This document shows positions 725 to 56,933 of a stretch of DNA of 64,000 nt, piece by piece (position 1 is the first letter of the stretch; every line of letters starts with the position of its first letter). Below the pieces are notes generated by a model. It was not told where the DNA came from and did no database searches. It saw only the letters and a program-made list of their open reading frames with translations. Source of the stretch: a virus (Duplodnaviria > Caudoviricetes). Location: positions 1-64,000 of the IMG/VR virus record IMGVR_UViG_3300013121_000022; one strand, 5' to 3'. The position numbers were made by a program, and so were the translations under genes.

Positions 725-1125
725 AAAAACATCTACTCCTGAAACTGGCCGATCACTTAGAACGTGGTCAACTTGGACACAAGAACTTTGATTACAACGC
801 GATCAATCTAGTTGAACAGGGCATTCCGGCTGAACCCAATGGCTGTGGATCATCGGGATGTGCGCTTGGAGAAATGCCCATTGTTTTCCCCGACGACTGG
901 GAATTTGTCTCTATCGGATCGCACATTCATTCAGTCACGCGCAAAAAAGATGTAAACAGTGAATGGCTGGCGTTATCTGTGGCGCAATACTTTGAAATCA
1001 CTTGCAATCAAGTGGAATACTTGTTTTGTCCAGCGTCAACGATCAACCCATTGTTCGGCAACGCAACACGCCATCAGGTCGCGCAACATATTCGAGATTT
1101 CGTGGAGCGCAATGGACAGATTTGA
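721..1125 (+). CDS. hypothetical phage protein (CGSSGCALG motif)
   Basis: ATGA overlap; Cys motif of a kind seen in small phage proteins. Confidence 0.7.
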   Translation: MKKHLLLKLADHLERGQLGHKNFDYNAINLVEQGIPAEPNGCGSSGCALGEMPIVFPDDWEFVSIGSHIHSVTRKKDVNSEWLALSVAQYFEITCNQVEYLFCPASTINPLFGNATRHQVAQHIRDFVERNGQI

Positions 1126-1348
1126 TCTGCGCCGATCCTGTAGTGAGTGCGGCTCAACCGATTACGTGGGCTGGCGCAAAGCCAACACGTTGTATATTGA
1201 CGACTGGAAAAATTACGTCTGGTTGTGCCAACACTGTTTCGATAACTATTGTCACGACATTCAGGAATTGATGGACGATCTTGACTCAGACATACGAGCT
1301 GGAATTTCAGATGCCTTGCATTATTACTACTCTGGCCGGAGCGGTTAA
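1112..1348 (+). CDS. small zinc-ribbon protein (CSECG...CQHC)
   Basis: Start refined to ATG 1112 after GGAG; two CxxC pairs. Confidence 0.6.
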   Translation: MDRFDLRRSCSECGSTDYVGWRKANTLYIDDWKNYVWLCQHCFDNYCHDIQELMDDLDSDIRAGISDALHYYYSGRSG

Positions 1349-1375
1349 CTGGTCGCCGCCAAAAGGAAACACAAC

Positions 1376-1573
1376 ATGTATTTCGCCTATTTTTTTAACT
1401 ACGAAACCCTAGAAACTTTTGAGTCGCACGATCCGGCTGACAATAAGTATGGTCAAGGTTGGTGTCAGGTGAACGCGACTTGCTTTGATTTGATCTTGCA
1501 GGCCAAAACTCAGTCGACCAACGATCAAGCGGTTCGTCGGGTTTTCAATAATTACTATCGGACACACTCATGA
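1376..1573 (+). CDS. hypothetical protein
   Basis: AAGGA RBS, ATG; overlaps next start. Confidence 0.6.
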   Translation: MYFAYFFNYETLETFESHDPADNKYGQGWCQVNATCFDLILQAKTQSTNDQAVRRVFNNYYRTHS

Positions 1574-1764
1574 ACATTTTCTTACCACTTTCACTGGTCT
1601 GGTTCGCTTTAGGATTTGTGACTGGTTGTACTTTTTCGGTCATTGGAATGTTTTTGATCTTATACTTGATTTACCAAATCGGACACAATGCAAACACAGA
1701 CATCGAAAATACCAAAACCCAACAAACGCCAGAGAGTCTTGACGATCATCCTATCGAACGGTAA
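1570..1764 (+). CDS. small membrane protein
   Basis: Hydrophobic N-terminal half; ATGA overlap. Confidence 0.5.
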   Translation: MNIFLPLSLVWFALGFVTGCTFSVIGMFLILYLIYQIGHNANTDIENTKTQQTPESLDDHPIER

Positions 1765-1954
1765 AAACGTTAGAGTTCGGCGCTGTGTGGATGTCAGCAA
1801 GGCCGATATTCCCGCTGTGGCGCGTTTGAGCATCGAACAGATGATAAATATCCTTGAATCGGTAGAAATCGCGTCAGAAGGGCTACCAGAGGCAGGAACT
1901 GGCATTCCTGAACCGTCCGACAAGCCCAATCAGGCTAAATTTGTTGACTTTTGA
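1688..1954 (+). CDS. hypothetical protein
   Basis: ORF in co-oriented run; overlaps previous ORF. Confidence 0.5.
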   Translation: MQTQTSKIPKPNKRQRVLTIILSNGKNVRVRRCVDVSKADIPAVARLSIEQMINILESVEIASEGLPEAGTGIPEPSDKPNQAKFVDF

Positions 1955-1972
1955 TCTGATTTTGTCTATAAT
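1944..1972 (+). promoter_or_regulatory. sigma70-type promoter, probably leaderless
   Basis: TTGACT-17bp-TATAAT, with 6 nt before ATG 1979. Confidence 0.75.
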
Positions 1973-1978
1973 GGCATT

Positions 1979-2833
1979 ATGAATCCAATCAAAATCTCAA
2001 TCCCCGTTCCGAGCAAACAGGTAATCTTTTGTAATTACTTCAACGGCATTCCCGAAGCGCCGAACGCTCACAGGTCGATTGTCGGAGAGGAAGAAATCAA
2101 CAATTTCGCCGGACGAGTCAATTTGGCGATCTACCAAGCTGGACGTGGAGTTGCTTATGCCCAAACCGGAAATTGCTCACTCGCAATTTGGTTCAACGAC
2201 AACACCGGAGAAGGTCTAGTGGTTGACGCGTTGATCGATGAGGACTTTGACTACAATTACAAATCAAACGATCCCCGCCATTATGCAACGGACGGGTATC
2301 AGCTGTATCAGAAATTAGTGGCCGAAGGATTCGACAAAAAAGGCAATGTGTCATGCGAGATGTGGCGGATTGAAGCTGCCGACTCGCAAACCGAATACAC
2401 CCCTTGCGGCGACACTGTATTACTCCCCGTTGCCGCCAACAACATTAACTTTGAAATCTATGATCGTGGCGGCTCGTTTTTACGCTACCGAGACAGTCGC
2501 GCCTCAATCTCAGCCAATTGTTTTGGTACAGGGCGACAAAATTCATATGCCGAATGGTTTGTTTTTATCGGAATGGCGATCACTCAGTCAAGAACAGGCA
2601 CAACAGATCGAATAGATAATTTTGAAATACTCAGAAATTGTCTGCCCGATGCATATCCCCAAAGCTTTGTGTTTTACACCGGAGAGTTTTCGGATGTCCT
2701 TGATTGGTCTGGCGGAATTTATAACGCCCCGCGCCCCGAAACACATCCACTATTCCAAGAACTCAAACAAGCTCTATTTGACGTTTATCGCGTCAATATA
2801 CACACCACTCAAAATTTAGTCGTTCGACTTTAA
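1979..2833 (+). CDS. hypothetical protein
   Basis: 284 aa ORF behind a consensus promoter. Confidence 0.8.
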   Translation: MNPIKISIPVPSKQVIFCNYFNGIPEAPNAHRSIVGEEEINNFAGRVNLAIYQAGRGVAYAQTGNCSLAIWFNDNTGEGLVVDALIDEDFDYNYKSNDPRHYATDGYQLYQKLVAEGFDKKGNVSCEMWRIEAADSQTEYTPCGDTVLLPVAANNINFEIYDRGGSFLRYRDSRASISANCFGTGRQNSYAEWFVFIGMAITQSRTGTTDRIDNFEILRNCLPDAYPQSFVFYTGEFSDVLDWSGGIYNAPRPETHPLFQELKQALFDVYRVNIHTTQNLVVRL

Positions 2834-2859
2834 TATCATTTGATTGCCATGATTTGTGA

Positions 2860-3264
2860 ATGGAGAAAACCATGACCGCTTTTCTTGAAGTTTGTAATTG
2901 CAACGTCTCTTTGATTATCCTTATCTGCGGAGTCGTCGTTTACTTTGCAACCGGAATTGCAACCGCTGTTGGTTATTTGATCGACCTGCAAAATAGTTTG
3001 CCAATCACAAAAATGCATCAATATCAAAACGACATCAATACCAATGTAGCATGGTATGTGTTGTTTGGTGGCTGTATTGGAACGATACAAGCTATCGTCT
3101 GGTGTGCAAAAACACTGTTGGCTGTCATGTTGTGGTTGGTTTCTTTTATTCCAAGACTGATTGCCAATCGTATCGTATTGATCAAAACACGACACGACCC
3201 CGACATAGTTCGGCGGAAGGAAAACACAATCCATGCAAATGACGACACGACTACGCACTCTTAA
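2860..3264 (+). CDS. membrane protein
   Basis: Two hydrophobic segments. Confidence 0.6.
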   Translation: MEKTMTAFLEVCNCNVSLIILICGVVVYFATGIATAVGYLIDLQNSLPITKMHQYQNDINTNVAWYVLFGGCIGTIQAIVWCAKTLLAVMLWLVSFIPRLIANRIVLIKTRHDPDIVRRKENTIHANDDTTTHS

Positions 3265-3649
3265 AGAAACACAATACGATCTGCGCCGATCTTGTGCCGC
3301 AGATTCATCCCCGCCTGCATCAAACGAAAAAATTCAAACATGCCTGTCGTTAGCAAGCCTAGTGGTCGGCGCAAACATCGTTACCCATCAAGATTTATTG
3401 CGTTGGGCATTTGGAGATCGTGACGTTATCTCGGATGCTAATGCCGATGCATTCATAAAATGGTTGACTGTCAATGGCGGCTCTCGTTTGGATGAGGCCG
3501 CAAACCGGGTCGTTCAATTTACGCCTGCCTTTCAGCGTAGTTTGGACACATTAACCGATCCAGTATTAAAATCGTTTACTTTTAGAGAGAACGGTTTTCG
3601 TGAATTGGCAGAATGGTTTAGGGCTTATCAGGCTGAGGTTGAATCATGA
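3233..3649 (+). CDS. hypothetical protein
   Basis: AAGGA RBS; coupled to next ORF. Confidence 0.6.
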   Translation: MQMTTRLRTLKETQYDLRRSCAADSSPPASNEKIQTCLSLASLVVGANIVTHQDLLRWAFGDRDVISDANADAFIKWLTVNGGSRLDEAANRVVQFTPAFQRSLDTLTDPVLKSFTFRENGFRELAEWFRAYQAEVES

Positions 3650-3852
3650 CTTACGTTTGTCCTTACTGTTTACAAGAGGCGACTCAAACTCAAGATGAAA
3701 CCATCTATATCTGTATTCCGTGTAGACAGGCATTGACAATTTCAGATGATCACGAAACACTGGTTGATTATCAAAAATCGTCAAGTGTCATGTGTGTTTA
3801 CGAGTATAAGCGCCGACATCAAGGCAGTTGGTCGGACAGGGAACAAACATGA
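3646..3852 (+). CDS. small zinc-ribbon protein (CPYC...CIPC)
   Basis: GAGG RBS, ATGA overlaps, CxxC pairs. Confidence 0.6.
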   Translation: MTYVCPYCLQEATQTQDETIYICIPCRQALTISDDHETLVDYQKSSSVMCVYEYKRRHQGSWSDREQT

Positions 3853-4163
3853 CTGATTTACTACACAGCACTTGCCTGAGTTGTCATCAACCGATCTCGT
3901 GGATAGCGAGTATGGAATGGAAGCATGATGATCCATCCATACAGCACCCGGCGCGGCATTGGCCTTTCCGCAGAGAGTATGACGATCTGCGCCGATCCGT
4001 TTATCAGCAGACCAAAAATCAAGCCTTGACATTGTTACAAGGTTTGATAGAATATGAACAAAGTGCTCAGTTTGAAGGAATTGGAACGAATCACGCCGAA
4101 CGCATTGAACTCATTGAGTTTTGCATGACCGGAATTCGACAGATGAAACAAAGCGAACCATGA
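3849..4163 (+). CDS. hypothetical protein
   Basis: Start refined to ATGA overlap at 3849. Confidence 0.6.
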   Translation: MTDLLHSTCLSCHQPISWIASMEWKHDDPSIQHPARHWPFRREYDDLRRSVYQQTKNQALTLLQGLIEYEQSAQFEGIGTNHAERIELIEFCMTGIRQMKQSEP

Positions 4164-6277: not shown

Positions 6278-6602
6278 TCGTCTGCCCGATCCGTTTCAAA
6301 CGCAGGTGTACTTTGACGATTTTCCTCCCCGCATTGTATTTAATGTCAAAGTCGTTGTGACGAATCAAGTTCGGGCTTTGGCCGAGACATCCGAAGGACA
6401 ATTTGCAAAAAATTTGACTGACAACGAATTGTCTCAGGCCGCAGAATGGGTTGCCAATTGTGCGGATTGTCTTGGTCAATATAGTCATCTCATCAAGGCC
6501 AAGCGCAAATACAAGACAGAGGGACACGTAGAGTACGAATTACGCCCAAAAGACTATCAGGCGTTTCTAGCGATCTGCGCCGATCTGATAGTAACCAAAT
6601 AA
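6156..6602 (+). CDS. hypothetical protein (start uncertain)
   Basis: 148 aa ORF overlapping the previous one. Confidence 0.55.
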   Translation: MLDNLAFFNYMTALTSEQWTQISKNFYNAIWPMVLEWEASNRLPDPFQTQVYFDDFPPRIVFNVKVVVTNQVRALAETSEGQFAKNLTDNELSQAAEWVANCADCLGQYSHLIKAKRKYKTEGHVEYELRPKDYQAFLAICADLIVTK

Positions 6603-8035: not shown

Positions 8036-9361
8036 ATGCATAACGTACTTCCCGCCCTACAATCTTTTTTAGTTCCGATCAATTCTTTAGTGGGAGCATT
8101 AGTCAATCCACGCACTCATTCAATCGAAAATCTAAAAGACATCAAATCAAGTCTGGAAACATTCGGACAAGATCAATTGATTGTTGTTCGCAAGGCCAAT
8201 AACGAAATCATCAAAGGTAATGGACGCTGGACGGGCATGAAGGAACTTGGCTGGACTGAATGCGCGGCTGTATTTGTGGATGACGACGAACTCAAGGCAA
8301 TGGCAAGAGGTATTGCCGACAATCGATCCAGTGAAACATCTGATTGGGACAACGAACTTTTACTTCGAGAATTAAAGCTTATCGAGCCAACTGATTTTGC
8401 AGACTCGACTGGTTTTAGTTTGGAAGAAATCAAAGCCCTTGCCGAATCGCTTGGACAATCTATAGATCAAAACGAAAAAGGCCGAGCGCCATTTGAGACT
8501 GCCGATGTAAGTGCACTTACCGAAAAATGGAATGTCAAAGTTGGAAAAACATGGAACATTGGTCAACATCGATTGATCTGCGCCGATCCAACCGATCCGC
8601 AGGCGGTAGCCAACGTCATGCGGGATGACAAAGCAAGCATGGTATTTGGTGATTTTCCAGACGATCATGACGCTGAATATATTCAAAGAGTTTTGGCGAA
8701 CATTATTCGTTACTCAATCGATAAATGGACTGGCTATTTATTATGCAACGATCAATATCTTCGTCGGGCAGCTAATGCTTATGCCTTGCGACTCGGACAT
8801 CCCATTGTTTGGATACGCAAGGAAAAAAAGAAAACAGGGGAAGGCTTTTATCAAAAAGGGCATGAATTTATTTACGTTCTAGGAAAAGGATACGGACTTA
8901 AGGAACGCTGGTTTGGATCGACATCCGAATCAGGAACTTGGAACATCAATTCAGTCAAAAGCAAGATAGATCAAATTCCGGTTGAACTCCCTGAACGAGC
9001 AATACGAAATTCAAGTCAAGAAGGCGAAACAGTTTTAGATTTATTTGGAGGCGTCGGCGCAACCATGATGGCCTCACATCTCAATAATCGTAAATGCATC
9101 TCGATTGAATTCGATCTGGCGCATTGCGCGATGATTCTTGAACGCATGAGTCAAATAGTTGAAATTACCGAAGCGGATTATGTGTCTTATCCAATACCAG
9201 ACGCACCGGAACTTTGGCAGACAATCTATTATAATTTAAGCGACTCGCAGGCGCGTATAGTCAATGAGGCTATTAAGCGAGTTTCGCAAACCCTAGACGG
9301 AAACAATCTTGACGCCAGAGCACTTGAACTAATCTGTGCTGACTATCTGGCCGGAAACTAA
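8036..9361 (+). CDS. ParB/Srx-like domain fused to a degenerate N6/N4 DNA methyltransferase
   Basis: NPRTH...SLETFG..Q.IVV...IIKGNGR...IADNR (ParB-like); W.IGQHRLIC.D and VLDLFGGVGAT (MTase); DPPY position reads DFPD. Confidence 0.8.
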   Translation: MHNVLPALQSFLVPINSLVGALVNPRTHSIENLKDIKSSLETFGQDQLIVVRKANNEIIKGNGRWTGMKELGWTECAAVFVDDDELKAMARGIADNRSSETSDWDNELLLRELKLIEPTDFADSTGFSLEEIKALAESLGQSIDQNEKGRAPFETADVSALTEKWNVKVGKTWNIGQHRLICADPTDPQAVANVMRDDKASMVFGDFPDDHDAEYIQRVLANIIRYSIDKWTGYLLCNDQYLRRAANAYALRLGHPIVWIRKEKKKTGEGFYQKGHEFIYVLGKGYGLKERWFGSTSESGTWNINSVKSKIDQIPVELPERAIRNSSQEGETVLDLFGGVGATMMASHLNNRKCISIEFDLAHCAMILERMSQIVEITEADYVSYPIPDAPELWQTIYYNLSDSQARIVNEAIKRVSQTLDGNNLDARALELICADYLAGN

Positions 9362-16701: not shown

Positions 16702-16950
16702 TTGCAATCGATTTATGATAAATACGCCAGAGTATATTCCGGCAAACTAATTGCGGCAGCTATCAAATCGTGGAAAGAAGGCGACTTTGAATCGGCGGAA
16801 TACAATTTTCAAAAATCACGCGATGGTTTTCAACGCGCCAAAAATCCGACTGAATGGAATGCCCTAGAAGCATGGCGTATTGCGGCTGAAAAGAAAATCG
16901 CAGGACAAACTGGCGAAAACAAAAATGAATCTGAGAACGAACAAGGGTAG
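16702..16950 (+). CDS. hypothetical helical domain; possible frameshift extension of 16223-16609
   Basis: Frame is open back to 16564; only a TTG start without a clear RBS. Confidence 0.5.
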   Translation: MQSIYDKYARVYSGKLIAAAIKSWKEGDFESAEYNFQKSRDGFQRAKNPTEWNALEAWRIAAEKKIAGQTGENKNESENEQG

Positions 16951-18028
16951 TGATCTGCGCCGATCAATTGAATACGTCTTGCAAAAGCACTTACCCGGTA
17001 AACACGATCAAAGCACTCACGGCAGAAGATCGAATGCTTCTGCCGAATCGGATGGGGTTGGCGGAGGCGGATCGCCGCTGGACTTTGAAGATCATGTCAT
17101 TCGCATTGAAACTGGAAGACATATTGAAAAAGTTACTCTTAAAAACGGCGAAACACGCGACAAGGAAATAATTGATTTTGATTATCAGCACAGTGCGGGA
17201 TCGAAATTAGATTCCAAGACCCTGCAACGGATCAAATCAGTCAAAGTTCCGCCCGGTGTGACCAACGTTCAAATTAGTCTCGATCCAAACGCCATGCTTC
17301 AAGCGGTATGGCAAGACAGCAAAGGTCGTGATGTGTATTTGTACTCGAAAGAACACGCTCGACAAGCGGCGGCTGAGAAATTTGAACGACTCAAAGACTT
17401 CAACGATGCTTTGCCGCAAATTCGCAAAACAATCGAATCAACTCTTTACGACAAAAACGCCGATCCCGAAACAAGAGATGTGGCCGCAGTGTTGTACTTA
17501 ATTGATAAGACTGGATTTAGAGTCGGATCGGATACAGATACGAAAGCGGAAAAGCAGGCATATGGCGCGTCAACACTATTAGGAAAACACGTCAAGGTTG
17601 ATGGGGACTCGGTTATATTTGACTTTGTGGGTAAAAAAGGCGTTGACATTCACAAACGCATTACCGATCCGATTATTGCCGACATTATTTCAACACGCAA
17701 AACAAAGAACTGGAGTCAAAAACTATTTCAGGTGTCCGATGATCAAGTTAGGACATTTCTAAAGCAGTTTGGTGATTTCAAGGTAAAAGATTTCAGAACA
17801 TGGAACGGAACAAACAAAGCACTTGAAGAACTCGCCAAAGTCAAGCGTAAGCCAAAGTCAGAATCTGAATTCAAAAAAGTCCAGCGAAAGATTGCGGACG
17901 CAGTAGCCAAGCACTTGGGAAACACTGCGTCAGTTTGTTTATCGGCCTATATCGATCCGTCGATTTGGGGAAGAATTCGCAAAGAAGAATGGGGCGCATA
18001 TGTCCCGCCAAGTCTCAAGGGCGACTAA
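16925..18028 (+). CDS. tagged cargo: type IB DNA topoisomerase
   Basis: Tag KHLPGKHDQSTHG at 16985; QAVWQDSKGR..YLY, GFRVG, FVGKKG, KDFRTW, LGNTASVCLSAYIDP (catalytic R,K,R,N,Y); start uncertain. Confidence 0.92.
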   Translation: MNLRTNKGSDLRRSIEYVLQKHLPGKHDQSTHGRRSNASAESDGVGGGGSPLDFEDHVIRIETGRHIEKVTLKNGETRDKEIIDFDYQHSAGSKLDSKTLQRIKSVKVPPGVTNVQISLDPNAMLQAVWQDSKGRDVYLYSKEHARQAAAEKFERLKDFNDALPQIRKTIESTLYDKNADPETRDVAAVLYLIDKTGFRVGSDTDTKAEKQAYGASTLLGKHVKVDGDSVIFDFVGKKGVDIHKRITDPIIADIISTRKTKNWSQKLFQVSDDQVRTFLKQFGDFKVKDFRTWNGTNKALEELAKVKRKPKSESEFKKVQRKIADAVAKHLGNTASVCLSAYIDPSIWGRIRKEEWGAYVPPSLKGD

Positions 18029-25031: not shown

Positions 25032-26147
25032 ATGACTGTTGTTGTTTCGATTATGGGATCAACGGCTACGCTCAGTAATTACGTTTGGACATCAACGGAC
25101 AAATTGGTAGCCAACACACTGAATGCTTATGTGCCAGTTGGCGGATTCGCAACGCATATTCCCGATCCAGATTACGAACTCGCACAGGCTATGATAACAA
25201 AATTTGGTGGAAAGATTATTTCCAACACTCCCCCCGTTTGGATACCAGACTATCACCCACGAACTAGCCTGCTTGACAAAGTGCTGAAACATCTTCCGGG
25301 ACAGCACAACCAACTGGATCATGGTAGAAAACAGAACTCGACTGATTTGCGATCTGACGAATCGGCAGAGTGGATGTTAGAGTATCACGACTCAGCGACC
25401 CCAATATCAGAAATGTCGATGAATAGCGTGTACATTCTTGAGTTCGCTAATGGCCGCAAGTCAATCGGAAAAACAATACAGCCAAACAGACAATACGGAA
25501 TAGACGCTGACCATGTAAGACAAGAAGCAATCAATGAAGTAACAGTGGCGTCACTTGCAAAAATACTGAATGTCAACGTTCCTCCAACGGTAGCAGTCAA
25601 AGATTCGGGATCAAGCTACACTATTAAGCAGGAGTTTGTCGATGGAAAAAATGGCGGCGAACTCTATTCGCTGAAAAAGGTGTATCAACGACTTCAAGAA
25701 CATCCCGATCATTTATTCCGAGCGGCGATACTGGACTTCATTACCGGACAAACAGATCGGCACGTTGGCAATGTAATGTTTACTAAAACCAGCTTTGCGT
25801 TAGTGGATAATGGCAACACCACACAACCTAGTAACATGACCAACCTAAAACTATGCGTTGGTCAAGCTAGTACAGAAGATCGATCTTTGATGGTGTCAGC
25901 ATACAACAAAATCTTTGATGCTAATTCTGCTCCAACTAAAGAACAATTCAATATTTTGAACTCTGTAATCAAGGCAAAGCAGTTTCCAAAACCAATTCGA
26001 GCACGAGCGGAATTCCTTAAGCGTCTTTGGACAGAAACTAACAGCACACAGATTCCGCCAATGACCAAAGAATCAGACTGGATCAATACCGAATCCAAAC
26101 TATGGAATTCGGTGGTCGCTCAGTACAATAATGAGGACGACAAATGA
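25032..26147 (+). CDS. tagged cargo: HipA/PI3-PI4-kinase-like protein
   Basis: Tag KHLPGQHNQLDHG at 25287; EV..A.LA..L...VPPT, DFITGQTDRHVGNVM, LVDNG. Confidence 0.82.
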   Translation: MTVVVSIMGSTATLSNYVWTSTDKLVANTLNAYVPVGGFATHIPDPDYELAQAMITKFGGKIISNTPPVWIPDYHPRTSLLDKVLKHLPGQHNQLDHGRKQNSTDLRSDESAEWMLEYHDSATPISEMSMNSVYILEFANGRKSIGKTIQPNRQYGIDADHVRQEAINEVTVASLAKILNVNVPPTVAVKDSGSSYTIKQEFVDGKNGGELYSLKKVYQRLQEHPDHLFRAAILDFITGQTDRHVGNVMFTKTSFALVDNGNTTQPSNMTNLKLCVGQASTEDRSLMVSAYNKIFDANSAPTKEQFNILNSVIKAKQFPKPIRARAEFLKRLWTETNSTQIPPMTKESDWINTESKLWNSVVAQYNNEDDK

Positions 26148-26776
26148 TTAACATTGTTAGCAATCAATCGATCATAGCCACTTACGACAACGATATGGGC
26201 TGGTCGGGAAATCCGAATCAGGTTCAGGTTCTAATAGAAACATTTGGTAAGCAAACCGAAGATCAATATCTTCGGACGATATGTGGATCGTACTTGTTTG
26301 CCCAAAAATCAAAACAAACACTAATGCAGACGATCAAGCACCTAATCGGTCAGCACGACCAAAAAACACACGGTGGACTCAAAGGGACTTTGCTTAGTAT
26401 TCGTGAAAACATTGTCCAGAAGGCTCAGGAAGTCTTGGACGACTGGAAACCGAACGAAGATGGCTTTGACGAGTTATTCGGCTCAGGCGGGGCGTGTGAC
26501 GAGATTGCAAGGGTAATGAGTGACGTTATCACGGAACAAATACCAGACGCCGAGATATTTGATGGTGGTCAGGACGGTGATGATCACGCCTTTATCTATG
26601 TCAAACAAAACAATAAGGCTTTTGCGGTTGATATTCCGCCGGGCGTCTATGAAACAGGTGGGGGATACAATTGGAAAAAGAAAGAGGGAGTCAAGCTCGA
26701 ACCGGACGATGTAGTTATATATGAAATTGACGCCTCTGTACTTGAATCGGAATTTGACGATCACGATTACGATTGA
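26144..26776 (+). CDS. tagged cargo: possible papain/transglutaminase-fold enzyme
   Basis: Tag KHLIGQHDQKTHG at 26336; GGAC.EIA...DHAF...VDI suggests a Cys-His-Asp triad. Confidence 0.55.
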   Translation: MINIVSNQSIIATYDNDMGWSGNPNQVQVLIETFGKQTEDQYLRTICGSYLFAQKSKQTLMQTIKHLIGQHDQKTHGGLKGTLLSIRENIVQKAQEVLDDWKPNEDGFDELFGSGGACDEIARVMSDVITEQIPDAEIFDGGQDGDDHAFIYVKQNNKAFAVDIPPGVYETGGGYNWKKKEGVKLEPDDVVIYEIDASVLESEFDDHDYD

Positions 26777-26803
26777 TCGGCGCAGATCGGATATAATTTA
26801 GGT

Positions 26804-27475
26804 ATGATGGACAGAAAAATAGACTACAAACAACTTGGAATTGATTTTGACTATCTCAAAGGACTTCCGTTAGGTGGTGGAGGTCGAGAGTGGCCTGCTC
26901 CCTGGGCGGTTGCCGCCAAGATATTATTCGTCAATGGATTTTCGGCCAGAGACATTGAAGACATTCTTCAAGGGCCAAAACGAATAACAATCTATTCATG
27001 GATCGATAAATACAAGTGGCAAGAAGAACGCGACAAGTACATGCAAGAGTTGGCCGAAAAAGCGTTAGTAGCCAGTCAAGAAACGCAAGTAGAGGTCAAC
27101 CAGCGACACTTAAAATCGCTTATTGCTATGCAGAATGCCGCAATCCTGCCAATCCTCAATAGGCAAGTTCAACCCAAGTCATTGGAAGGTACAATGACAG
27201 CGGCAATTTCGGCCATGCGAATGGAGCGTGACATTCTTGGACTCGCAGGTGGAACACCGGAAACAACCATTCTACAAGACAATCGTGTTCAAACGGTTTT
27301 GACATCATTGGACGGAATTCCGACAGATAAGTTGGAAGAATTTTTCGCCCTTCAACAAAAGAAAATGGAGTTAGACGGAGAGATCGCCAATCTAACTACT
27401 GAAAATAAAACGGACGATCATTTTGCAGGAGATGAAGAACATGACTCAATCATTGAAGCGACAGTTGCTGAGTAA
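26804..27475 (+). CDS. putative terminase small subunit (HTH)
   Basis: A...F..G.S...I...L......TIYSW...Y.W HTH followed by helical region; upstream of TerL; TATAAT at 26792. Confidence 0.55.
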   Translation: MMDRKIDYKQLGIDFDYLKGLPLGGGGREWPAPWAVAAKILFVNGFSARDIEDILQGPKRITIYSWIDKYKWQEERDKYMQELAEKALVASQETQVEVNQRHLKSLIAMQNAAILPILNRQVQPKSLEGTMTAAISAMRMERDILGLAGGTPETTILQDNRVQTVLTSLDGIPTDKLEEFFALQQKKMELDGEIANLTTENKTDDHFAGDEEHDSIIEATVAE

Positions 27476-32000: not shown

Positions 32001-33290
32001 GATAAATCTAAAGCAATGGGATTTGATACATCCACCAGCATTTATCGCTTGCCACTAAACGCCGACATGACAAAATTCAAGCATGGATTTTTGGTGACAG
32101 CGCCCGATTACTATACTCCAAGAGGGCCAAGCTCCAACAACGAAGTTCGCCAAGTGTTCGGCAAGCATCTTCCGGGACAACATGACCAGAGAGATCATGC
32201 ACCTGCCCATCTATCCGACTCTGAGCATCAACGCTATGCCCGAAGTCGAGTTAAACGAGAATCGCTGGTGGCTAATGGACTCAAGGGTTATCGAGCACTA
32301 ATTCAGTTGGTCGGCGGAGATCGCGCCAGTGAATTAGTCGCGTCTTATCGTCGCTATCGTCCAAGCAGATCGGCGCAGATCGTTTCTCGCTGGTTATTAG
32401 ACCTGCATATCCCCCACGAGATGGAAGTAAAGCTTGCCCCTGAAATCTATGTTGACATCATGTTTGGGAACAAGATTATTGAACTACGTGGAAAGAATCA
32501 TGCCAATCGATCAAAAGAATATGCCGCACAGCGCAAAGAAATTCAAAAGCGCAAAGCGGATATTGCTCAAAATCGCGGCATGTCTATATTGTATTTAACT
32601 GATACAGAAATTCAAACTGGCAAAGCACTCGATAAATTGAAAGTGTTTGTGAACGAGCCTGCTCAAAAGCATCTGGCCGGAATGCATAATCAACAGGATC
32701 ATGGACGCAAGAAACGCGAGTACGCCTTGACTGAAATCACTAAACAAGATGATAGTACGTGGTCAAAATCAGCAAATCAACTTTCAAAGCCCAATCATCC
32801 GCGTTTTGATGACATCTTGAAATCAGCAATCTATATATATTCAGCCCTTGAAGATCAACAAAAATCAAAAGGCACATACAAGGTTGTTGGTCTGCGAGAC
32901 AATTCCAATGTACTACAAGCGTTTTTTGGAGTAGATACATTAGACGCAGGCAAACTAAATAAGCTGAAAGACTATGGCATGTCTAATTCAGACGCAGATC
33001 AAATCAAAGATGCGTTGTACCTTGATTCCTTGTCGGTAGCTCCCTGGCATTTTGGAGATGACGGTGTTTCTGGTTGGGGAATTGAGATTATGAGATCGGC
33101 CATTAATTATGCCAAAAACAATCACAAGAATGGTATATTTCTAGTATCTGCCGATTCGGGATCGGACTCTTTTTACAATCTAATTGACATGAAGAAAATA
33201 TCAACACTCAACAATAAGCAGGGCTATTTTTGGAATACGCAAGACATGGAGGCGTTTTTGAATGAGTATCAACTTAGACAAAGCAAGTAA
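29013..33290 (+). CDS. tagged polyvalent polyprotein: 2x ART-PolyVal, zincin/LPD1, unknown module, PD-(D/E)xK nuclease-like, GNAT-like
   Basis: F..WFG.S.....G.P...YH.T twice, each ending VVFDPTQ.KSAIGNSGEF; HELFH...YY..PVEF.AR.FEQY; VDI......IELRG..H; LYLDSLSVAPW; six tags at domain borders. Confidence 0.85.
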   Translation: MKKTIWQDHRYSIQEEDVNDDKTVYYLSGKGIETTPVLFVHGTVWGSYSGRLSDMADQLSRKGYMSLSPNTKSLAKQIITLAPKGIGLSKKFNPDQPRDENGQWTDTNISKHKPSTKITQSPEFKRWFGNSRAINHDGTPQILYHSTTKDFDEFASGQETVNGGSFGNWTVKRSGIFFAESPVDSQAYTSDGKRQKQNARTIPVFLKEVNPLDLVSDGLTFDIVNSLVSTGYVTEKFLYSKDFNWELFDDEDGIAFTNAVKAAGYDSVRFWDNNPDTGKSFVTHVVFDPTQIKSAIGNSGEFNPDNPKITKHLPGEHDQLTHGRQTSGEVQSNSDQPKQTTPIKQPRTREDVIRSKEFKKWFGDSKVVDENGDPLVVYHGTTHTFDQFDLNKAPIENAVGRGFYFSSDSYDAGNNYATPLGPDITERIANYADQLKDSEDEDGNPIDHDRAMELAREKFVGDHEGAVLPVYLKIENPVYLNKNSRAYDKNTRFEIIENFDEDGNETDDPEGNGIQLLESIDNACANYNLDSDIVKEKLYEGLIDGSLTAYDVMKTIGDTFSDVYDENTGEYAGGQLISDIFQGMGYDGIIFENANQFFPKMGIEYEADHYVVFDPTQVKSAIGNSGEFSPDNPKINKSLRKSVENVFKHLPGQHDQSTHGRKHSLDSSGTSSNSSNVRIPNDDEAKKISDLMWHIRQSGFDGVYVNDRKVTPEQAIESLSEVVDQLDTIKKVFPTLDLFNLSIRFNLQDAYDGTNAFYSPEDRVIEIHEGNGEGFAHELFHAIDHGFSKSIARNHPSRLASEITDIYAVELLNDTPQAMAIHKAFKDFFGAVKNTKTFTDDWSDIANLIDEDKRRNAHPDRVANFIRYYKSPVEFSARFFEQYMQKEHGLKQVGYSRSTHYMRDADYQAVKPYFESVLESFGLMTKTSKHYPGLHNQQDHAPNEKVAREHQDSHKFLDSLKQANLQPDDVRTISKKKTKMRLELIYHDETRAKQAFDKSKAMGFDTSTSIYRLPLNADMTKFKHGFLVTAPDYYTPRGPSSNNEVRQVFGKHLPGQHDQRDHAPAHLSDSEHQRYARSRVKRESLVANGLKGYRALIQLVGGDRASELVASYRRYRPSRSAQIVSRWLLDLHIPHEMEVKLAPEIYVDIMFGNKIIELRGKNHANRSKEYAAQRKEIQKRKADIAQNRGMSILYLTDTEIQTGKALDKLKVFVNEPAQKHLAGMHNQQDHGRKKREYALTEITKQDDSTWSKSANQLSKPNHPRFDDILKSAIYIYSALEDQQKSKGTYKVVGLRDNSNVLQAFFGVDTLDAGKLNKLKDYGMSNSDADQIKDALYLDSLSVAPWHFGDDGVSGWGIEIMRSAINYAKNNHKNGIFLVSADSGSDSFYNLIDMKKISTLNNKQGYFWNTQDMEAFLNEYQLRQSK

Positions 33291-37322: not shown

Positions 37323-39062
37323 ATGAGAAAATCAAAAACACCGACAAAGCCGCTAATCCCTAAAACAGACATCAAAGTTATTCCAGTCGAAAAGGGAATG
37401 AAAGACGATGGAACACCATTTGTTAAAGCCGTTGTGTTGAAGGGTGCAAAAAAATCACGCGTCAAGCGAGACATTTCCAAGTCGGCCTACAAAGACAATA
37501 AAATAGTTGAACCGTATCTTAAGCCAGCAGTGTTAGACGAGTTTTTGGTTGCCTCTCCAACTCATGCAATCTCAGTACACAAAAAAGCCAGACTAGTCGC
37601 CGGACTCGGCATTAAGATCATTACCCGATTTAACGCTGGAGAGGCTAGGGTAAAAATGCGAAAATGGGAAAATGCCGATCCCGAACAACAAAAAAAGCTC
37701 GATAAAAAAGAGTACGATGAAGCTAAAAAGAATTTGGCGGCATTCAAGCTCGAAAAAGAAAGATTACAAAACTGGCTGGACAGCGCAACAGACGAATCGA
37801 TCTTATTGGATATTATTGAAAACTTTTGGGCGGACTATGAGGCATTTGGTAACGGCAACTTAGAAATTCGCCGCGACGATAATGATGAAGTTGCCAAAAT
37901 CGGACACATCCCCTCACTTCGACTGAAAGTAGTTCAGGGCGGAGAGAAGTTCGCTTACTTCGCCACACCCAATCAAATCAATCCAGAATATTTCAAGCGA
38001 TTTGGCGATCCCCGACACCTAAACGCCAAAACTGGTGAATGGCGAGAGTGGAAAGGATCGATTGACGATGACGATTTTGACGCAGGCAAAGATTGGGGAG
38101 ATGACGAAGCGAATGAGGTATTGCGCTATCTGTGCTACAACTCTCGCGACATGAATTACGGCATTCCTGTTTGGTATTCAGCTTTGGCCGATATGATCGG
38201 CGCAATCGAATCGCGTGACTTCATGCTCAAGTTCTTCACCGAAAAAGCTGTGCCCATGTATGCGGTTCTACTGGAAGGCGGATCGTGGTCGGATGAAACC
38301 ATTGCCACTATTCAAAATTTCTTTCGTCGTGAACTTAACGGAAACTATCACGCGACACTCGCCCTAGAAGTTCCAGAGAATGGCAAGATTACGTTTGAGC
38401 AAATCAGCCAAGAGCCGCGCTGGTGGCCTTTCATTCTAAAATATCGTGACACTGTGCGAGATATTATTGTCTCGGTACACGGCCTTACTCCGTCCCTTGT
38501 GGGCGTCATTGAAACGGCGCACTTGGGAGGCGGAGATGGATCGGCGCAAATGGAAATGGTCAAAACCGCCGAAATCAAGCCGCGTCAAGAAAAACTTGAA
38601 TGGCTGATGAATCAAAAATTGATCAAGGATGGCATGGGATTGTCGCATGTCATGATCAAGTTTGATGAGATTGATGTCAAAGACGAATCTGCAACCGTTC
38701 AATCAGTTAATACACTTTACTCAAGTCCGCAAAGACCTGCTATTACGACCAATGAAGCAAGAGAAATGTTACGCCTTGCGCCCGTTGATGCAGAATGGGC
38801 GGACGAGCTATTGTTGCAAGACCCGCAATTCGGGTTGTTGCCTATCAGTCAAATTTCAGAGGCAGTTCGCAATCAAGCAAAGTCGGCGCAGATCGCTGGA
38901 CAGGCACAGGGCATTGAGTCTCAAACACAAAACGTTGATGGCCTGCCAGCATCGAAACCAACAGGACAACCAGAACAAGTCCCTGATTTCAACAGTATCT
39001 TTTCTGGATTACAAAAATCAAAAATCAATTTGAGGAAAGAGGTTCGAGATGCTATTAAATAG
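37323..39062 (+). CDS. portal protein (PBSX/XkdE-like)
   Basis: Follows TerL; DYEAFGNG.LEI.R, YGIP.W, FF...A.P, T.NEAREML.L.P. Confidence 0.9.
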   Translation: MRKSKTPTKPLIPKTDIKVIPVEKGMKDDGTPFVKAVVLKGAKKSRVKRDISKSAYKDNKIVEPYLKPAVLDEFLVASPTHAISVHKKARLVAGLGIKIITRFNAGEARVKMRKWENADPEQQKKLDKKEYDEAKKNLAAFKLEKERLQNWLDSATDESILLDIIENFWADYEAFGNGNLEIRRDDNDEVAKIGHIPSLRLKVVQGGEKFAYFATPNQINPEYFKRFGDPRHLNAKTGEWREWKGSIDDDDFDAGKDWGDDEANEVLRYLCYNSRDMNYGIPVWYSALADMIGAIESRDFMLKFFTEKAVPMYAVLLEGGSWSDETIATIQNFFRRELNGNYHATLALEVPENGKITFEQISQEPRWWPFILKYRDTVRDIIVSVHGLTPSLVGVIETAHLGGGDGSAQMEMVKTAEIKPRQEKLEWLMNQKLIKDGMGLSHVMIKFDEIDVKDESATVQSVNTLYSSPQRPAITTNEAREMLRLAPVDAEWADELLLQDPQFGLLPISQISEAVRNQAKSAQIAGQAQGIESQTQNVDGLPASKPTGQPEQVPDFNSIFSGLQKSKINLRKEVRDAIK

Positions 39063-39393: not shown

Positions 39394-39873
39394 TTACTTG
39401 TTTCCAAACAGATGCTTGCGCCAAAATTGAATGCGCCCAACCCGCATCATGGATGCATACAAATTCCGATCCATAGAAATGATGTCGGTTGTTTTTAAGT
39501 TGTCTGGAACTAGATCGATCTTCCGGCTTGAAAAAATTTCCTTGAGCCGATTGGTCAGCCGTTCGACTTTTTTGGATCGGCGCAGATCGGCGTAATCGTT
39601 GTACGACACGCCATGCTTGCTTAAAATGTACCGAATACTGCCAGATGATACATTGGAAATTCGCACAGCATCAGTCAGGGTTTCGCCACTCTTGATGAGA
39701 TTAATGATACCCCGCTCATTTTCGGACGAGAGCGCCGAGATAATCGGGTTTGTTTTTCGCGTACCAGCAATTTGTCCAATGCGTTGGCGCGACAATCCCA
39801 TTGATCGGGCGATCTCTGCATCAGAACTACCCGCAATACGCATTGATTCGATTTTTTCTTTTACCTTATCCAT
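39394..39873 (-). CDS. HTH DNA-binding protein
   Basis: G.S.AEIARSMGLSRQRIGQI. Confidence 0.75.
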   Translation of the reverse strand: MDKVKEKIESMRIAGSSDAEIARSMGLSRQRIGQIAGTRKTNPIISALSSENERGIINLIKSGETLTDAVRISNVSSGSIRYILSKHGVSYNDYADLRRSKKVERLTNRLKEIFSSRKIDLVPDNLKTTDIISMDRNLYASMMRVGRIQFWRKHLFGNK

Positions 39874-46547: not shown

Positions 46548-46860
46548 TTATCCCTTCAGAATCGCCAGAGCTGTGGTGTATCGATAAACTTGGGACGGGC
46601 GCAGTGTTGCACGATGATCTAAATAATCAGTGAGATCGGCAATCTTGATCGGCGCAGACTCAGTTGGCTTTAGAGATCGAATGTAATCAAAATATCGAAC
46701 ATCTTCATTACGAGTCACGATTTGAACTAAAGCCAAGACCCGTTCTCCAAACTTATCACGAATAAGATGAGGCACGATATTATTTGAAAGATCGTCCTCA
46801 ATTGTGTCGTGCAAAATGGCGTGCGGCAAAAATTTTTGATCTCTCTAAAATGTTATCCAT
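46548..46860 (-). pseudogene. internally deleted SpoT/Mesh1-like HD hydrolase
   Basis: ATG 46860 gives MDNILERSKIFAA; another frame gives AILHDTIED...FGERV..LV..VT...IKIAD; the segment with the first His motif is missing. Confidence 0.65.
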
Positions 46861-51853: not shown

Positions 51854-51856
51854 ATT

Positions 51857-53976: not shown

Positions 53977-53991
53977 CATTTGGCCTCTATC

Positions 53992-54018: not shown

Positions 54019-54026
54019 CAATTCCT

Positions 54027-54479
54027 ATGGATTGGTCTGTCTTTATTGAACGCGTCGGAGTGCCGATAGCAATTCTATTTGCTATTGGAATGTTCATATA
54101 CTTCAAGGCATGGCCTTTCTTAACTCAACAAATCATATCGTTCAACAAAGAACGAACAGACGAACGTAAAAATCAAATCAAAGAACGCGAAGATTTTATC
54201 AGCGCTCTGCATCAAATTACCCATGAACGTTCAGTTGAAAATACTCGCATTCAAGAATTCTTGAGTCTGGTAGAGCGAGAACGAGAAGGCAACACCAAAA
54301 TATCTCAATCAGTCGAAAACTTGGCAATACACATTCGAGAAATGGACGAATCAAAACGTATTCGCGATGAAAAAATTGCAGAGATATTGACCGACCTAAC
54401 GGTTAGTGTCAGGCAGCTTAGCGAACAAATTTCGGCACAAACAAAAACTAAAAGGAAAACAAGGAATGCTGATAAGTGA
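54027..54479 (+). CDS. single-TM plus coiled-coil protein (holin-like candidate)
   Basis: IERVGVPIAILFAIGMFIY then coiled coil; start refined to ATG 54027. Confidence 0.5.
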   Translation: MDWSVFIERVGVPIAILFAIGMFIYFKAWPFLTQQIISFNKERTDERKNQIKEREDFISALHQITHERSVENTRIQEFLSLVEREREGNTKISQSVENLAIHIREMDESKRIRDEKIAEILTDLTVSVRQLSEQISAQTKTKRKTRNADK

Positions 54480-54924
54480 ATTAGTAATAATTCAATGGAT
54501 TAGAGAAAGTCGAGCAATGATAGGAATTGCTCATGGGTTGATTGGGTTTTTGATCGCGCTTAGATTAGCAACATGGGACAAAAGCGAAAACACTAACAGA
54601 AGCAAATACTTAATTTTATTATTAGTGGGTATTGGACTGTCGGGTGTAATAGAAGGCATATCGTTGATCATCGGACAATCCTTAGATCGTCAAACGCTTG
54701 GCGTTATTCCTCAAGTCTTTTTGCTTGTGTCAGGATTGTTCGACCTAATCCCAACGATGATTTACACCCTTTATATTTTTGGAATTGTAAATGGAGTTGC
54801 ACCATATTCAAACAAGATCATGGAAGAACGAATTTACGAATTCCTGCATAAAGAAATAGAAAAAGTAGTCGATCAAAGGATCGAAGAAAGAACAGCTAAA
54901 CAAGATGAAACTCGATCTGTGTAG
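54466..54924 (+). CDS. multi-pass membrane protein
   Basis: Three hydrophobic segments. Confidence 0.6.
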   Translation: MLISELVIIQWIRESRAMIGIAHGLIGFLIALRLATWDKSENTNRSKYLILLLVGIGLSGVIEGISLIIGQSLDRQTLGVIPQVFLLVSGLFDLIPTMIYTLYIFGIVNGVAPYSNKIMEERIYEFLHKEIEKVVDQRIEERTAKQDETRSV

Positions 54925-55477
54925 CGGAACTGCCGCACCACAACGCAAACGCGAGGGTTACACAACAATTGATGCCAGACCTTTTGATGGGGTTGATTTC
55001 GTGTGCGAACTCGGATCAGCCCCATTGCCTTTTGCGGATAATTCATTTACGGAAATTCGAGCACATGACGCTTTGGAGCACATTCGGGATGGATTTTTTG
55101 AGCTCATGGATGAATGTTGGCGAGTAATGCAACCGAAAGGCATATTCGATATTCATGTACCGCGCTTTCCGTCTCCAGCAGCTATCATGCATCCTGAACA
55201 TTGCCAGTATTTTGTGGGCGAACAAGATGCCATTCCGTTTGCCAAAGCCTTAGCACCACTTATCAATCGTGAGATAGATCGACTATTTTGTATTCATAGT
55301 TGGGCGTTTTTTCTTCCATCTGCCGATGGGATCGATCCGCATGGATACCTCAAGGGGTTCTGGCATCTTGTCAGTCAACGAGAAATCGACAGTCACATTC
55401 AAGTAAAGCTAACCCCCAATAAACCCAACGGTTTATTTCCATACAAACATATCATTCGCAAAGACACGATTCTTTAA
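54905..55477 (+). CDS. class I SAM-dependent methyltransferase
   Basis: KLDLCSG...ID...LPF.DNS...I.A...LEH...E..RV..P.G...I.VP. Confidence 0.82.
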   Translation: MKLDLCSGTAAPQRKREGYTTIDARPFDGVDFVCELGSAPLPFADNSFTEIRAHDALEHIRDGFFELMDECWRVMQPKGIFDIHVPRFPSPAAIMHPEHCQYFVGEQDAIPFAKALAPLINREIDRLFCIHSWAFFLPSADGIDPHGYLKGFWHLVSQREIDSHIQVKLTPNKPNGLFPYKHIIRKDTIL

Positions 55478-55538
55478 TATTCACAATCTTGAAGTAATGT
55501 GTTAAAGTCGATAATCCTAATCAAAAAAAGAGACAATT

Positions 55539-56363
55539 ATGAATTCACTTCCTCCATTGGTTGTTGTAATTGGCGATACCCACTATGGTTCGGCGGTAGC
55601 AAGTTGTACTCCCACTTATGAATTAAGACCCGGACACGTTGTAAACTGTAATGCCCTTAACGCTTGGTTGTATTCACGTTGGTGTAGCTTTTGGGAGTCC
55701 ACAGTTATGCCGCAGATCGTGGATCGGCAAGGTAAAAAACTCAGACAATTATTTGTCTTTCACAATGGCGACATCATCGATGGGATTCATCATGGCGGGA
55801 ATGAACTCATCGTTCGCTCCCTGAGCGGTCAGAAGAAAATCGCACTCGCTCATCTTACTCCAATAAAACAATACGCAGACTGGATTGGAATGACCAAAGG
55901 AACGGAAGCTCATGACACCGACGAACATGAGGCCGCGACTGGTATTGCCGACTCGCTAAACGTTGACGAATACGATCAGCGACTACGTGTATGGGTGGGC
56001 GACATTCTTATTGATGTTGCACATCATGGGCGATCCAAATCAAGTCCCTGGACATCCTCAGCCGCCAATCTGGTATCTAAAGTTGTAATGGATTGTGCGC
56101 TTTATGATGAGGAAATTCCTCACTACATCTTTCGCGGACATCGCCATGTGGTAGACGATTCGGGCTTGCAATTTGACAGGGTTCGTGCTATTATCTGTCC
56201 TGCATGGCAGCTATCCAATAACTTTGCATGGAAGGTTGCCACAGAAACAAGACCTGATATTGGAGGAGTCATAATTGATGGCAAAAAAACCTGTGAAATT
56301 GTTCGGTATGTCGCAAAACGAAATCCGCCAACAAGACCAAGTATCCGAGAAAAATCTTCTTGA
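55539..56363 (+). CDS. calcineurin-like metallophosphoesterase
   Basis: GDTHYG, NGDIIDG, GTEAH, AHH, RGHRH. Confidence 0.82.
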   Translation: MNSLPPLVVVIGDTHYGSAVASCTPTYELRPGHVVNCNALNAWLYSRWCSFWESTVMPQIVDRQGKKLRQLFVFHNGDIIDGIHHGGNELIVRSLSGQKKIALAHLTPIKQYADWIGMTKGTEAHDTDEHEAATGIADSLNVDEYDQRLRVWVGDILIDVAHHGRSKSSPWTSSAANLVSKVVMDCALYDEEIPHYIFRGHRHVVDDSGLQFDRVRAIICPAWQLSNNFAWKVATETRPDIGGVIIDGKKTCEIVRYVAKRNPPTRPSIREKSS

Positions 56364-56613
56364 CGAGCTAGTGTCAATTTTTAGGCCAGAGCGCCAAACA
56401 AAAGACGATGTGACAATCAACGAATTAGCGTCTAAAACCGGACGATCAAAAGATTTTCTGAGACGAGAACTAGATAAATTGGTTGACGCCGAACAACTAA
56501 CGTCTTTTGAGGGTATAGCCAACACAGGGCGAACAACCACTATTTACAGGCGAATCAAGGGGAAAAAAGTCGACTTTTCCGTTTTGCAAGCACCACCCAA
56601 GAAAAAGAAATAA
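56308..56613 (+). CDS. winged-HTH-like protein
   Basis: TINELASKTGRS...LRR.L..LV. Confidence 0.55.
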   Translation: MSQNEIRQQDQVSEKNLLDELVSIFRPERQTKDDVTINELASKTGRSKDFLRRELDKLVDAEQLTSFEGIANTGRTTTIYRRIKGKKVDFSVLQAPPKKKK

Positions 56614-56615
56614 CA

Positions 56616-56933
56616 ATGCCCCTACAAACCCCTACAACCGTTGATCCACGCGATGGACGTTATTATGTGTCTGTAGTCGATGGAAAGCGCTTTACACTGC
56701 TTCTAGGGCCATTCCAGAGGCATCAGGACGCACTAAACAGAGTAGACGAATGTTATCAGCTGGCCTGTAAACTCAATTCGTGGGCGCATTTCTATGCATA
56801 CGGAACTGTTAGAATGGATGACAATTTCACTCTGGCAGGCAAATTCAATGACCTTTTGAAGTACAAGCCGCCTGACTATACAATCGGATCGGCACAGATC
56901 AAAAACAACAAAAAAGCCTCTCGCAAAAAGTGA
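56616..56933 (+). CDS. hypothetical protein
   Basis: YYVSV.DG....LLLGPF..H..AL; last gene before the terminator. Confidence 0.65.
   Translation: MPLQTPTTVDPRDGRYYVSVVDGKRFTLLLGPFQRHQDALNRVDECYQLACKLNSWAHFYAYGTVRMDDNFTLAGKFNDLLKYKPPDYTIGSAQIKNNKKASRKK

Follow-up and report, generated by a model that had tools for sequence, protein, structure and literature searches.

Across the 64,000 nucleotides that make up the window analysed here, which are positions 1-64,000 of the virus record IMGVR_UViG_3300013121_000022, nine exact copies of the 14-bp word GATCTGCGCCGATC are dispersed through genes and spacers alike, and the whole record of 172,504 bp holds 22 of them. Our reading is that the 14-mer may be this phage's spelling of a palindromic site, common to a clade of related phages, at which a two-fold symmetric phage-encoded protein would dock; we give this reading about even chances of being right. 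The record belongs to a large tailed phage and is rated 100% complete by IMG/VR, and the same 141 bp stand at both of its ends, which indicates a circular assembly. The window had previously been read from its letters alone (hereafter the sequence-only reading), and the nine exact and three near copies pointed out there are all real, the exact ones at the coordinates and on the strands that were claimed for them (Table 1). Seven one-mismatch copies stand beside the 22 exact ones in the whole genome, where the exact copies divide into 11 on the plus strand and 11 on the minus strand.

The word is the most over-represented 14-mer of the genome. The enrichment check against a Markov background that the sequence-only reading had suggested gives whole-genome expectations of 0.0007 copies at order 0, 0.055 at order 5 and 0.42 at order 6, all of which drop further when the motif's own copies are taken out, and not one copy appears in any of 100 dinucleotide shuffles. 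Two ways in which the motif might have been explained away had also been named, and both fail. A general GATC or CGATC bias does not account for the count, since 22 copies stand against at most 0.42 expected at Markov orders 0-6; GATC is enriched about 1.8-fold overall, 22 of the 27 GATC-N6-GATC pairs are the 14-mer itself, and the 10-bp spacing of GATCs is not otherwise enriched. An artefact of assembly is excluded because independent assemblies from other samples hold the same word. The exact copies are spaced no more evenly than at random (coefficient of variation 0.81, p 0.23), and exact and one-mismatch copies taken together are weakly more even than random (0.68, p 0.02). A literature search for the 14-mer found no paper with that word.

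Selection on these copies acts at the level of the DNA. The 22 copies are found in all three reading frames, both along and against the coding direction, and also between genes; 7-11 of them lie in spacers or on gene borders, which is an enrichment in non-coding DNA, the non-coding part of the genome being 9.5%, and 12 run with transcription and 10 against it. The motif is translated as DLRRS, ICAD or RSAQI in different genes, as the sequence-only reading had it, and additionally as IGAD. In open reading frames (ORFs) of at least 120 amino acids the peptides DLRRS (4 of 4), RSAQI (2 of 2) and IGAD (3 of 3) are always written in the motif's codons, a spelling that codon usage would predict in only 0.5-1.6% of cases for each. 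The copy at 8575 lies in a gene that fuses a ParB_N domain to a DNA methyltransferase, and in two relatives (L337 and L338) the site is found at the same position in this gene and with the same silent bases. The N-terminal segment of the methyltransferase reads HFLMIGD in GC-rich relatives, which have no site there, and HRLICAD in three AT-rich lineages; in these the conserved residues LMIGD have been rewritten to LICAD, silent positions included, so as to hold the site. A signal at the level of the DNA, read by a protein, is the claim of the sequence-only reading that has the best support.

The asymmetry of the word can be traced to a rampant avoidance of palindromes in this genome, a cause that the sequence-only reading had missed. 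Of the 64 palindromic hexamers, 19 have no copy in 172.5 kb and 29 have three copies or fewer; TGCGCA, GGCGCC and CGATCG are all absent, against Markov expectations of 121 (both strands), 88 and 275, respectively, and so are all four RGATCY words. Written generally, the motif is GATC-K-GCGC-M-GATC, and neither of its two symmetric versions occurs in the genome. A T..A spelling would make TGCGCA and a G..C spelling would make GGCGCC, so that only T..C and G..A are allowed, and because these two are reverse complements of one another, what remains is the observed word in two "orientations". The bases that flank the motif follow the same logic: it is preceded by Y and never followed by G, since RGATCY would arise with a purine before it and CGATCG with a G after it. 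Avoidance of these words therefore explains the asymmetry, the two orientations and the Y...H flanks of the motif. The orientation itself is probably without function, since in solid ORFs it largely follows the reading frame. In frame 0, DLRRS is retained through the silent change of AGA to CGA, and in frame 1, RSAQI is retained through the silent change of TCT to TCG, such that 7 of the 8 copies in these two frames are oriented so that the peptide of the palindrome stays, the exception being the copy at 76045 (RSAPI); frame 2 is mixed, with mostly IGAD over ICAD. The near-total loss of 6-bp palindromes is among the strongest signatures of restriction avoidance that we have met in a phage, and it constrains the host. 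Several other words (CCWGG, GCWGC, CTGAAG, CGAGG and CTGGG) are also strongly depleted, as is the 7-mer TCGGCGA (1 copy vs. 37 expected). There is no such avoidance of TGATCA, ATCGAT, TCGCGA and GAATTC, as would fit a Dam-type methylation of the phage DNA.

Relatives of this phage were reached mostly through homologues of the large terminase subunit (TerL), L337 and L338 having been reached through the ParB_N-methyltransferase (Table 1). A 20-kb megablast query matched none of the GenBank phages, and all matches with tblastn were remote; scans of IMG/VR yielded random single matches with the 14-mer, three single matches with a GC-rich 16-mer, one useful relative with TerL and none with the replication initiator, and a scan of Joint Genome Institute (JGI) metagenomes with a TerL alignment yielded three loci. 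In the AT-rich lineages the site is GATC-[G/A]-GCGCAGATC, and TGCGCA and GGCGCC are missing from these lineages as well. The GC-rich lineages tolerate TGCGCA, and there the site is a perfect palindrome, (A)GTGTCTGCGCAGACAC(T), at a similar density; in L120 it is GCCTCTGCGCAGAGGC in place of GTGTCTGCGCAGACAC. The core common to the clade is TC-N-GCGCAGA, of which there are 37 sites in the present genome (0.6 expected), 5 and 6 in two loci of about 22 kb from Hainich groundwater, and 6 and 5 in the GC-rich L339 and L340 (0.2 expected in each), where most are perfect palindromes of 16-20 bp. Loci of at least 10 kb carry 0.14-0.30 core sites per kb, with the exception of L120 at 0.08.

The third position of the core tracks the tolerance of TGCGCA. 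It is T in 19 of 19 counts from the TGCGCA-tolerant GC-rich loci, some of which overlap, and G or A in 52 of 52 counts from the present genome and the five loci that have no TGCGCA. This amounts to a comparative series in which the same core is palindromic in some phages and forced to be asymmetric in others, and it shows how restriction avoidance can reshape a putative protein-binding site. The core is present in every relative whose TerL identity is 58% or higher, and relatives at 29-39% have no convincing dispersed motif. On these comparisons the 14-mer is the local form of a clade-wide site. The GC-rich relatives keep the core and swap out the GATC flanks, and GATC is absent from all 12.4 kb of L120. 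The lineage-specificity of the flanks weakens explanations that centre on methylation, and that half of the sequence-only reading which proposed a methylation-sensitive binding protein has become weak, GATC not being a conserved feature of the site. The occurrence of one core in relatives of 43-46% and 60-63% GC, on the other hand, indicates a reader that is borne by the phages themselves.

An iterated word that derives from the host, in the manner of HIP1, or else a site for some conserved protein of the host that the phage borrows, is not supported and is the least probable of the explanations that we have weighed. The sequence-only reading had raised the former, and the enrichment of GATC is in favor of this explanation, as is the fact that GATC is not avoided, which fits methylation of the Dam type. 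The core is nonetheless kept in phages of 43% and of 61% GC, HIP1 itself has no copy in the genome, and the search of bacterial genomes that had been suggested, which covered 185,579 species genomes, returned at least 120 single matches from unrelated and mostly GC-rich taxa, with no multi-copy genome among the matches listed. Paired GATCs of the SeqA type or the P1 pac type were considered and rejected, given the invariant TGCGCC core, the lack of any other enrichment of GATC-N6-GATC and the GC-rich relatives that do without GATC.

Most copies in the present genome are not at orthologous positions in the Hainich relative, the portal copy included, and it follows that sites turn over. Three places persist: one is ahead of a terminase gene, another is the linker at the N-terminus of topoisomerase IB, and the third is within the ParB_N-methyltransferase gene. 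These persistent copies single out sites that are worth mutating. The copy at 26775 lies 15 bp upstream of a gene with a Pfam Terminase_5 domain, in the order stop codon, motif, 3 nt, TATAAT (26792), 6 nt, ATG. The sequence-only reading had placed it just upstream of the TATAAT before a putative gene for the small terminase subunit (TerS), and the motif does abut this box and the Terminase_5 domain is consistent with TerS. In L120 and L334/L335 a stop codon, the palindrome and a -10-like box succeed one another about 75-80 nt upstream of TerL; in L209 the palindrome is 78 bp upstream of TerS, and in the Hainich phage a near copy lies 15-28 bp upstream of TerL. The TATAAT stands exactly 6 nt before the terS ATG with no Shine-Dalgarno sequence in place (26792-26806), an arrangement that suggests a leaderless terS transcript. 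In topoisomerase IB, the linker site lies just before a histidine-rich tag and encodes DLRRS both in the present genome and in the Hainich phage; in L339/L340 the palindrome is found at the same place in another frame, where it reads GVSAQT.

The recurrence near terminase genes raises the possibility of a packaging or late-gene system, in which TerS (26804) or a late regulator would bind the motif; the terminase copy would serve as the primary pac site or operator, and all other copies would be secondary. We consider this rather improbable. Four lineages have a copy, and a fifth has a near copy, in the 100 bp that precede TerS or TerL, the layout of stop codon, site and -10-like box recurs, TerS has a Terminase_5 helix-turn-helix (HTH), and a circular assembly fits headful packaging. 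A single pac site would suffice, however, and 22-37 copies that turn over are not expected; the -10-like box follows only 2 of the 22 copies (0.8 expected), and the link to terminase was noticed post hoc among the 15-20 or so genes of each locus.

The histidine-rich tag that follows the linker site, KH-L-PG-x-HDQ...H, occurs at seven places in five proteins of the window (14734, 16988, 29946, 30957, 32166, 33355 and 51223), and the motif lies 1-7 amino acids ahead of it in the topoisomerase IB of the present genome and of L339/L340 and in one protein of L207. This could be taken to mean that the copies are recombination signals or module boundaries that mark swappable cargo, or else signals at the level of RNA such as processing stems, an explanation that we hold to be very unlikely. 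The placement before the tag speaks for it, and it counts against it that only one of the seven tags of the genome has a copy next to it. Also in its favor, two copies form helix P1 of an RNA that resembles that of ribonuclease P (RNase P), and two others (141400 and 142558) flank a cluster of five tRNAs; with 12 copies along and 10 against transcription, however, most copies cannot act in RNA, and an RNA-level role cannot be general. The RNase P-like element (125196-125574 of the genome; L203:1196-1574) is a full-length match to the class A RNA at 58.9 bits (E 2.5e-17), the gathering score being 100, and Rfam at the gathering threshold reports tRNAs and a transfer-messenger RNA (tmRNA) and no RNase P. 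Its P1 helix consists of the motif copy at 125192 and a near copy at 125561, and a promoter-like TTGACT-17-TAATAT ends 6 nt ahead of the former.

A palindromic core, outer bases that are specific to each lineage, a broadly similar density, turnover of positions with a few anchored copies, and indifference to coding all fit docking sites for a symmetric protein, and it is on this basis that we infer that a protein binds them. On the mechanism that we propose, an ancestral core TCTGC|GCAGA would be read by a two-fold symmetric DNA-binding protein encoded by the phage, and selection would keep docking sites on the phage chromosome at about one per 5-8 kb, most of them wherever the sequence tolerates one and a few fixed at the terminase gene, the topoisomerase IB N-terminus and the ParB_N-methyltransferase gene. 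The present genome tolerates neither TGCGCA nor GGCGCC, so that one half-site has to carry G (sometimes A) for T, an asymmetry that is probably non-functional, and the avoidance of RGATCY and CGATCG fixes the flanking bases. A ParB/KorB-like module would load at these sites in the manner of KorB at its operators or ParB at parS, and the loaded enzyme would then act along the phage DNA through methylation or silencing.

As to the reader, the most likely candidate is the module at the N-terminus of the methyltransferase fusion that resembles ParB and KorB, although our confidence in it is tentative and stays well short of even. ParB_N scores above the Pfam cut-off in the fusion, and the N-domain matches those of Noc and ParB by sequence. 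An AlphaFold2 (AF2) model of residues 1-170, with a predicted local distance difference test (pLDDT) value of 83, aligns best to RK2 KorB (Z 12.2, root-mean-square deviation 2.9, 129 residues, model residues 6-141) and also to Caulobacter ParB bound to parS (Z 10.1, 122 residues), and in both cases the aligned part takes in the opening helices of the DNA-binding domain as well as the N-domain. At its C-terminal end the protein is a beta-class N6A/N4C methyltransferase with Z of about 20 to M.MboIIA, CcrM and M.BceJIV. The gene is present in the present genome and in L337-L340 and is syntenic in AT-rich and GC-rich relatives that bear the sites. The ParB-like binding site of the sequence-only reading accordingly has a reasonable candidate in the gene at 8036 that was named along with it, by virtue of the likeness to KorB and of the site that the gene itself carries in three lineages. 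Two further proteins are candidates: TerS, which is favored by the terminase-proximal copy, and the 159-amino-acid product of the ORF at 39394, whose HTH match is sub-threshold only. A Pfam scan of ten small ORFs that adjoin copies found no DNA-binding domain.

A number of observations weigh against the docking-site reading or against this choice of reader. Box II of the ParB module is GNGRW and not GERRxRA, and only some 40 residues, or about three helices, lie between the N-domain and the linker; the HTH region is short, and the remainder of the protein is a methyltransferase. In those parts of the Hainich phage that were sampled, the fusion had no close ortholog, although this phage shares the motif, and a weak precomputed ParB_N flag on a 349-amino-acid neighbor there was not reproduced by hmmscan or BLAST. 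A classic operator role is unsupported for most copies, because they show no genome-wide tie to sigma-70-like promoters or terminators: a strict scan placed 1 of the 22 copies near a sigma-70-like promoter (0.86 expected), promoter-like and terminator-like sites were not in excess at copies in a relaxed scan either, and of 44 flanks 2-3 have a -10 box after the motif (about 1.5 expected). Finally, the choice of strand is clustered, with 6 runs on the circle (p ~0.02), and 19 of the 22 copies fit a split into two arms at ~76 kb, close to the initiator gene and the GC-skew minimum (p ~0.03), which leaves some room for a polar function. Replication-arm polarity was set aside as an organizing rule, in view of the palindromes in relatives and of the 7 of 8 copies in solid ORFs whose orientation in frames 0 and 1 goes with the reading frame.

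A more specific version of the docking-site reading, which we would back only doubtfully, is that the sites are parS-like loading sites from which a ParB-fold methyltransferase would spread or slide, methylating the phage DNA in cis. If so, the phage would have a self-addressed anti-restriction system in which the enzyme recognizes the phage chromosome by its sites, about one per 5-8 kb, with the corollary that host restriction pressure has rewritten the docking site from a palindrome into a half-degenerate form. It would also provide a function for the ParB_N-methyltransferase fusions, which are reported to be enriched in phages and to have no known role (PMC12704722). Binding in vitro by the ParB-fold methyltransferase, if positive, would give a role to a widespread family of phage genes.

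Dispersed invariant palindromes have been described in phage genomes before, the closest described phenomenon being, by analogy, the 17-bp dyad repeat TGTTCGG-N3-CCGAACA of the Cluster O mycobacteriophages, of which Corndog has 34 invariant copies, 14 intergenic, 10 near 5' ends of genes and 10 internal (PMC4351075). Here as there, a word occurs far above chance in tens of copies, in spacers as well as in ORFs and with no rule of orientation, and an inverted-repeat site is conserved among related phages. The two differ in sequence, host range, type of phage and density (1 per 5-8 kb as compared to 1 per 2 kb), and in the present case one half-site is forced to be degenerate by restriction avoidance. 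The match is one of kind and not of mechanism.

The KorB operators (OB) of plasmid RK2, the parS sites of ParB and the Noc-binding sites (NBS) are dispersed palindromes of 13-16 bp, some at promoters and some inside genes, that are read by dimeric ParB-fold proteins which load and spread. The present sites resemble them in being palindromic and dispersed in several copies, and the ParB_N module of the phage models onto KorB from RK2, although the candidate reader differs from KorB and ParB in its fusion to a methyltransferase and in its lack of a canonical box II and of a full HTH and dimerization domain. The stoperators of Cluster A mycobacteriophages (L5) and the dispersed C1 operators of P1 likewise consist of tens of sites of 13-17 bp that are scattered through a phage genome and share a single binding protein; these have a genuine asymmetry, go with the direction of transcription or with promoters, and are the targets of a lysogenic repressor. 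Stoperators were rejected as an explanation on grounds of symmetry, the relatives being palindromic, of orientation (12:10) and of lysogeny genes: a search of the complete genome with PF00589 found no tyrosine integrase, serine recombinases not having been searched for.

The sites might instead be those of a phage nicking or cutting enzyme, as is found in T5 and in tf/LUZ24-like and phiKMV-like phages, an explanation that we regard as unlikely. Like the nick motifs of those phages, the copies are short, exact and dispersed words inside genes with lineage-specific variants; G/GCGCAGA resembles the consensus of the major T5 nicks, R/GCGCRGG (PMC3517423), and the genome has two HNH genes. Known localized nick motifs all lie on one strand (PMC3517423), whereas here the strands are used 11:11, and the perfect palindrome of the relatives would mean that both strands are cut. 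HIP1 (GCGATCGC) of the cyanobacteria is similar as an over-represented, GATC-containing palindromic word that is indifferent to reading frame, but it is a feature of host chromosomes at about 1 per kb, and the phage has neither GCGATCGC nor CGATCG. The new elements of this case are a site rewritten under restriction avoidance, the comparative series in which this can be seen, the few persistent positions, and a ParB-fold methyltransferase as a specific candidate reader.

Table 1. Copies of the 14-mer and genes of interest in the window, and loci from related phages
Feature	Position or locus	Strand	Context
Exact copy	1124..1137	+	overlaps TGA stop of ORF 721-1125
Exact copy	3278..3291	+	DLRRS in ORF 3233-3649
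Exact copy	3984..3997	+	DLRRS in ORF 3828-4163
Exact copy	6572..6585	+	intergenic, 47 bp upstream of ORF 6633
Exact copy	8575..8588	+	inside ParB_N-methyltransferase gene, reads HRLICAD
Exact copy	16952..16965	+	topoisomerase IB N-terminus, DLRRS, 7 amino acids ahead of histidine-rich tag
Exact copy	26775..26788	-	between stop of ORF 26144-26776 and terS
Exact copy	32368..32381	-	RSAQI in 1425-amino-acid ORF
Exact copy	39575..39588	-	DLRRS in minus-strand 159-amino-acid ORF (weak HTH_28 match)
One-mismatch copy	56887..56900	-	
Two-mismatch copy	38881..38894	-	portal gene; relative's portal copy at a different position
Two-mismatch copy	46647..46660	-	
ParB_N, short helical (HTH-like) region and beta-class N6/N4 DNA methyltransferase	8036..9361	+	candidate reader
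Small terminase candidate (Pfam Terminase_5 HTH)	26804..27475	+	alternative candidate reader
Topoisomerase IB gene	16880..18028	+	holds positionally conserved copy
AT-rich relatives, Hainich groundwater contigs	L206, L211, L344		TerL 62%, 43-45% GC
AT-rich relative, JGI fragment	L207		TerL 67%
AT-rich relatives, two fragments	L337, L338		reached via ParB_N-methyltransferase
GC-rich relatives	L208/L209, L339/L340, L334/L335		~60-61% GC, TerL ~58-59% where present
GC-rich relative	L120		63% GC, TerL ~58-59%

Beyond the genes already mentioned, the genome encodes TerL (35829), a portal protein (37323) and a tape measure in addition to the Terminase_5-type TerS (26804), and its replication genes include a DnaB-like helicase and an O/DnaD-like initiator at 73.6-76.0 kb, an SNF2 helicase and a sliding clamp. 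RtcB, a CCA-adding enzyme, 44 tRNAs and a tmRNA make up the RNA-related genes. Among the genes that act on DNA are the two HNH genes, three N6/N4 methyltransferases, of which one is the ParB_N fusion (8036), and a bacterial-type topoisomerase IB (16880). The latter has the Pfam domains Topoisom_I and Top1B_N_bact, and its versions in the GC-rich relatives have a long N-terminal extension (821-1078 amino acids). The tRNA genes are located at 114.8-164.8 kb (L202-L205) together with the tmRNA, which has an unusual tag peptide, and copies of the motif precede a tRNA-Lys on the minus strand by 4 nt and a tRNA-Asn by 18 nt. In the Hainich relative L211, the region at 8.6-19.6 kb contains five separate N6_N4 methyltransferase genes amid glycosyltransferase and epimerase genes beside the SNF2 helicase, and its TerL and SNF2 genes both harbor inteins. 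In the present genome the initiator/helicase operon and the SNF2 helicase diverge from a region (76024-76563) in which the cumulative GC skew also has its minimum, for which reason this region at 76 kb may be the origin. The 94-amino-acid ORF located there (76024-76308) has an ortholog in the Hainich relative and is therefore taken to be real.

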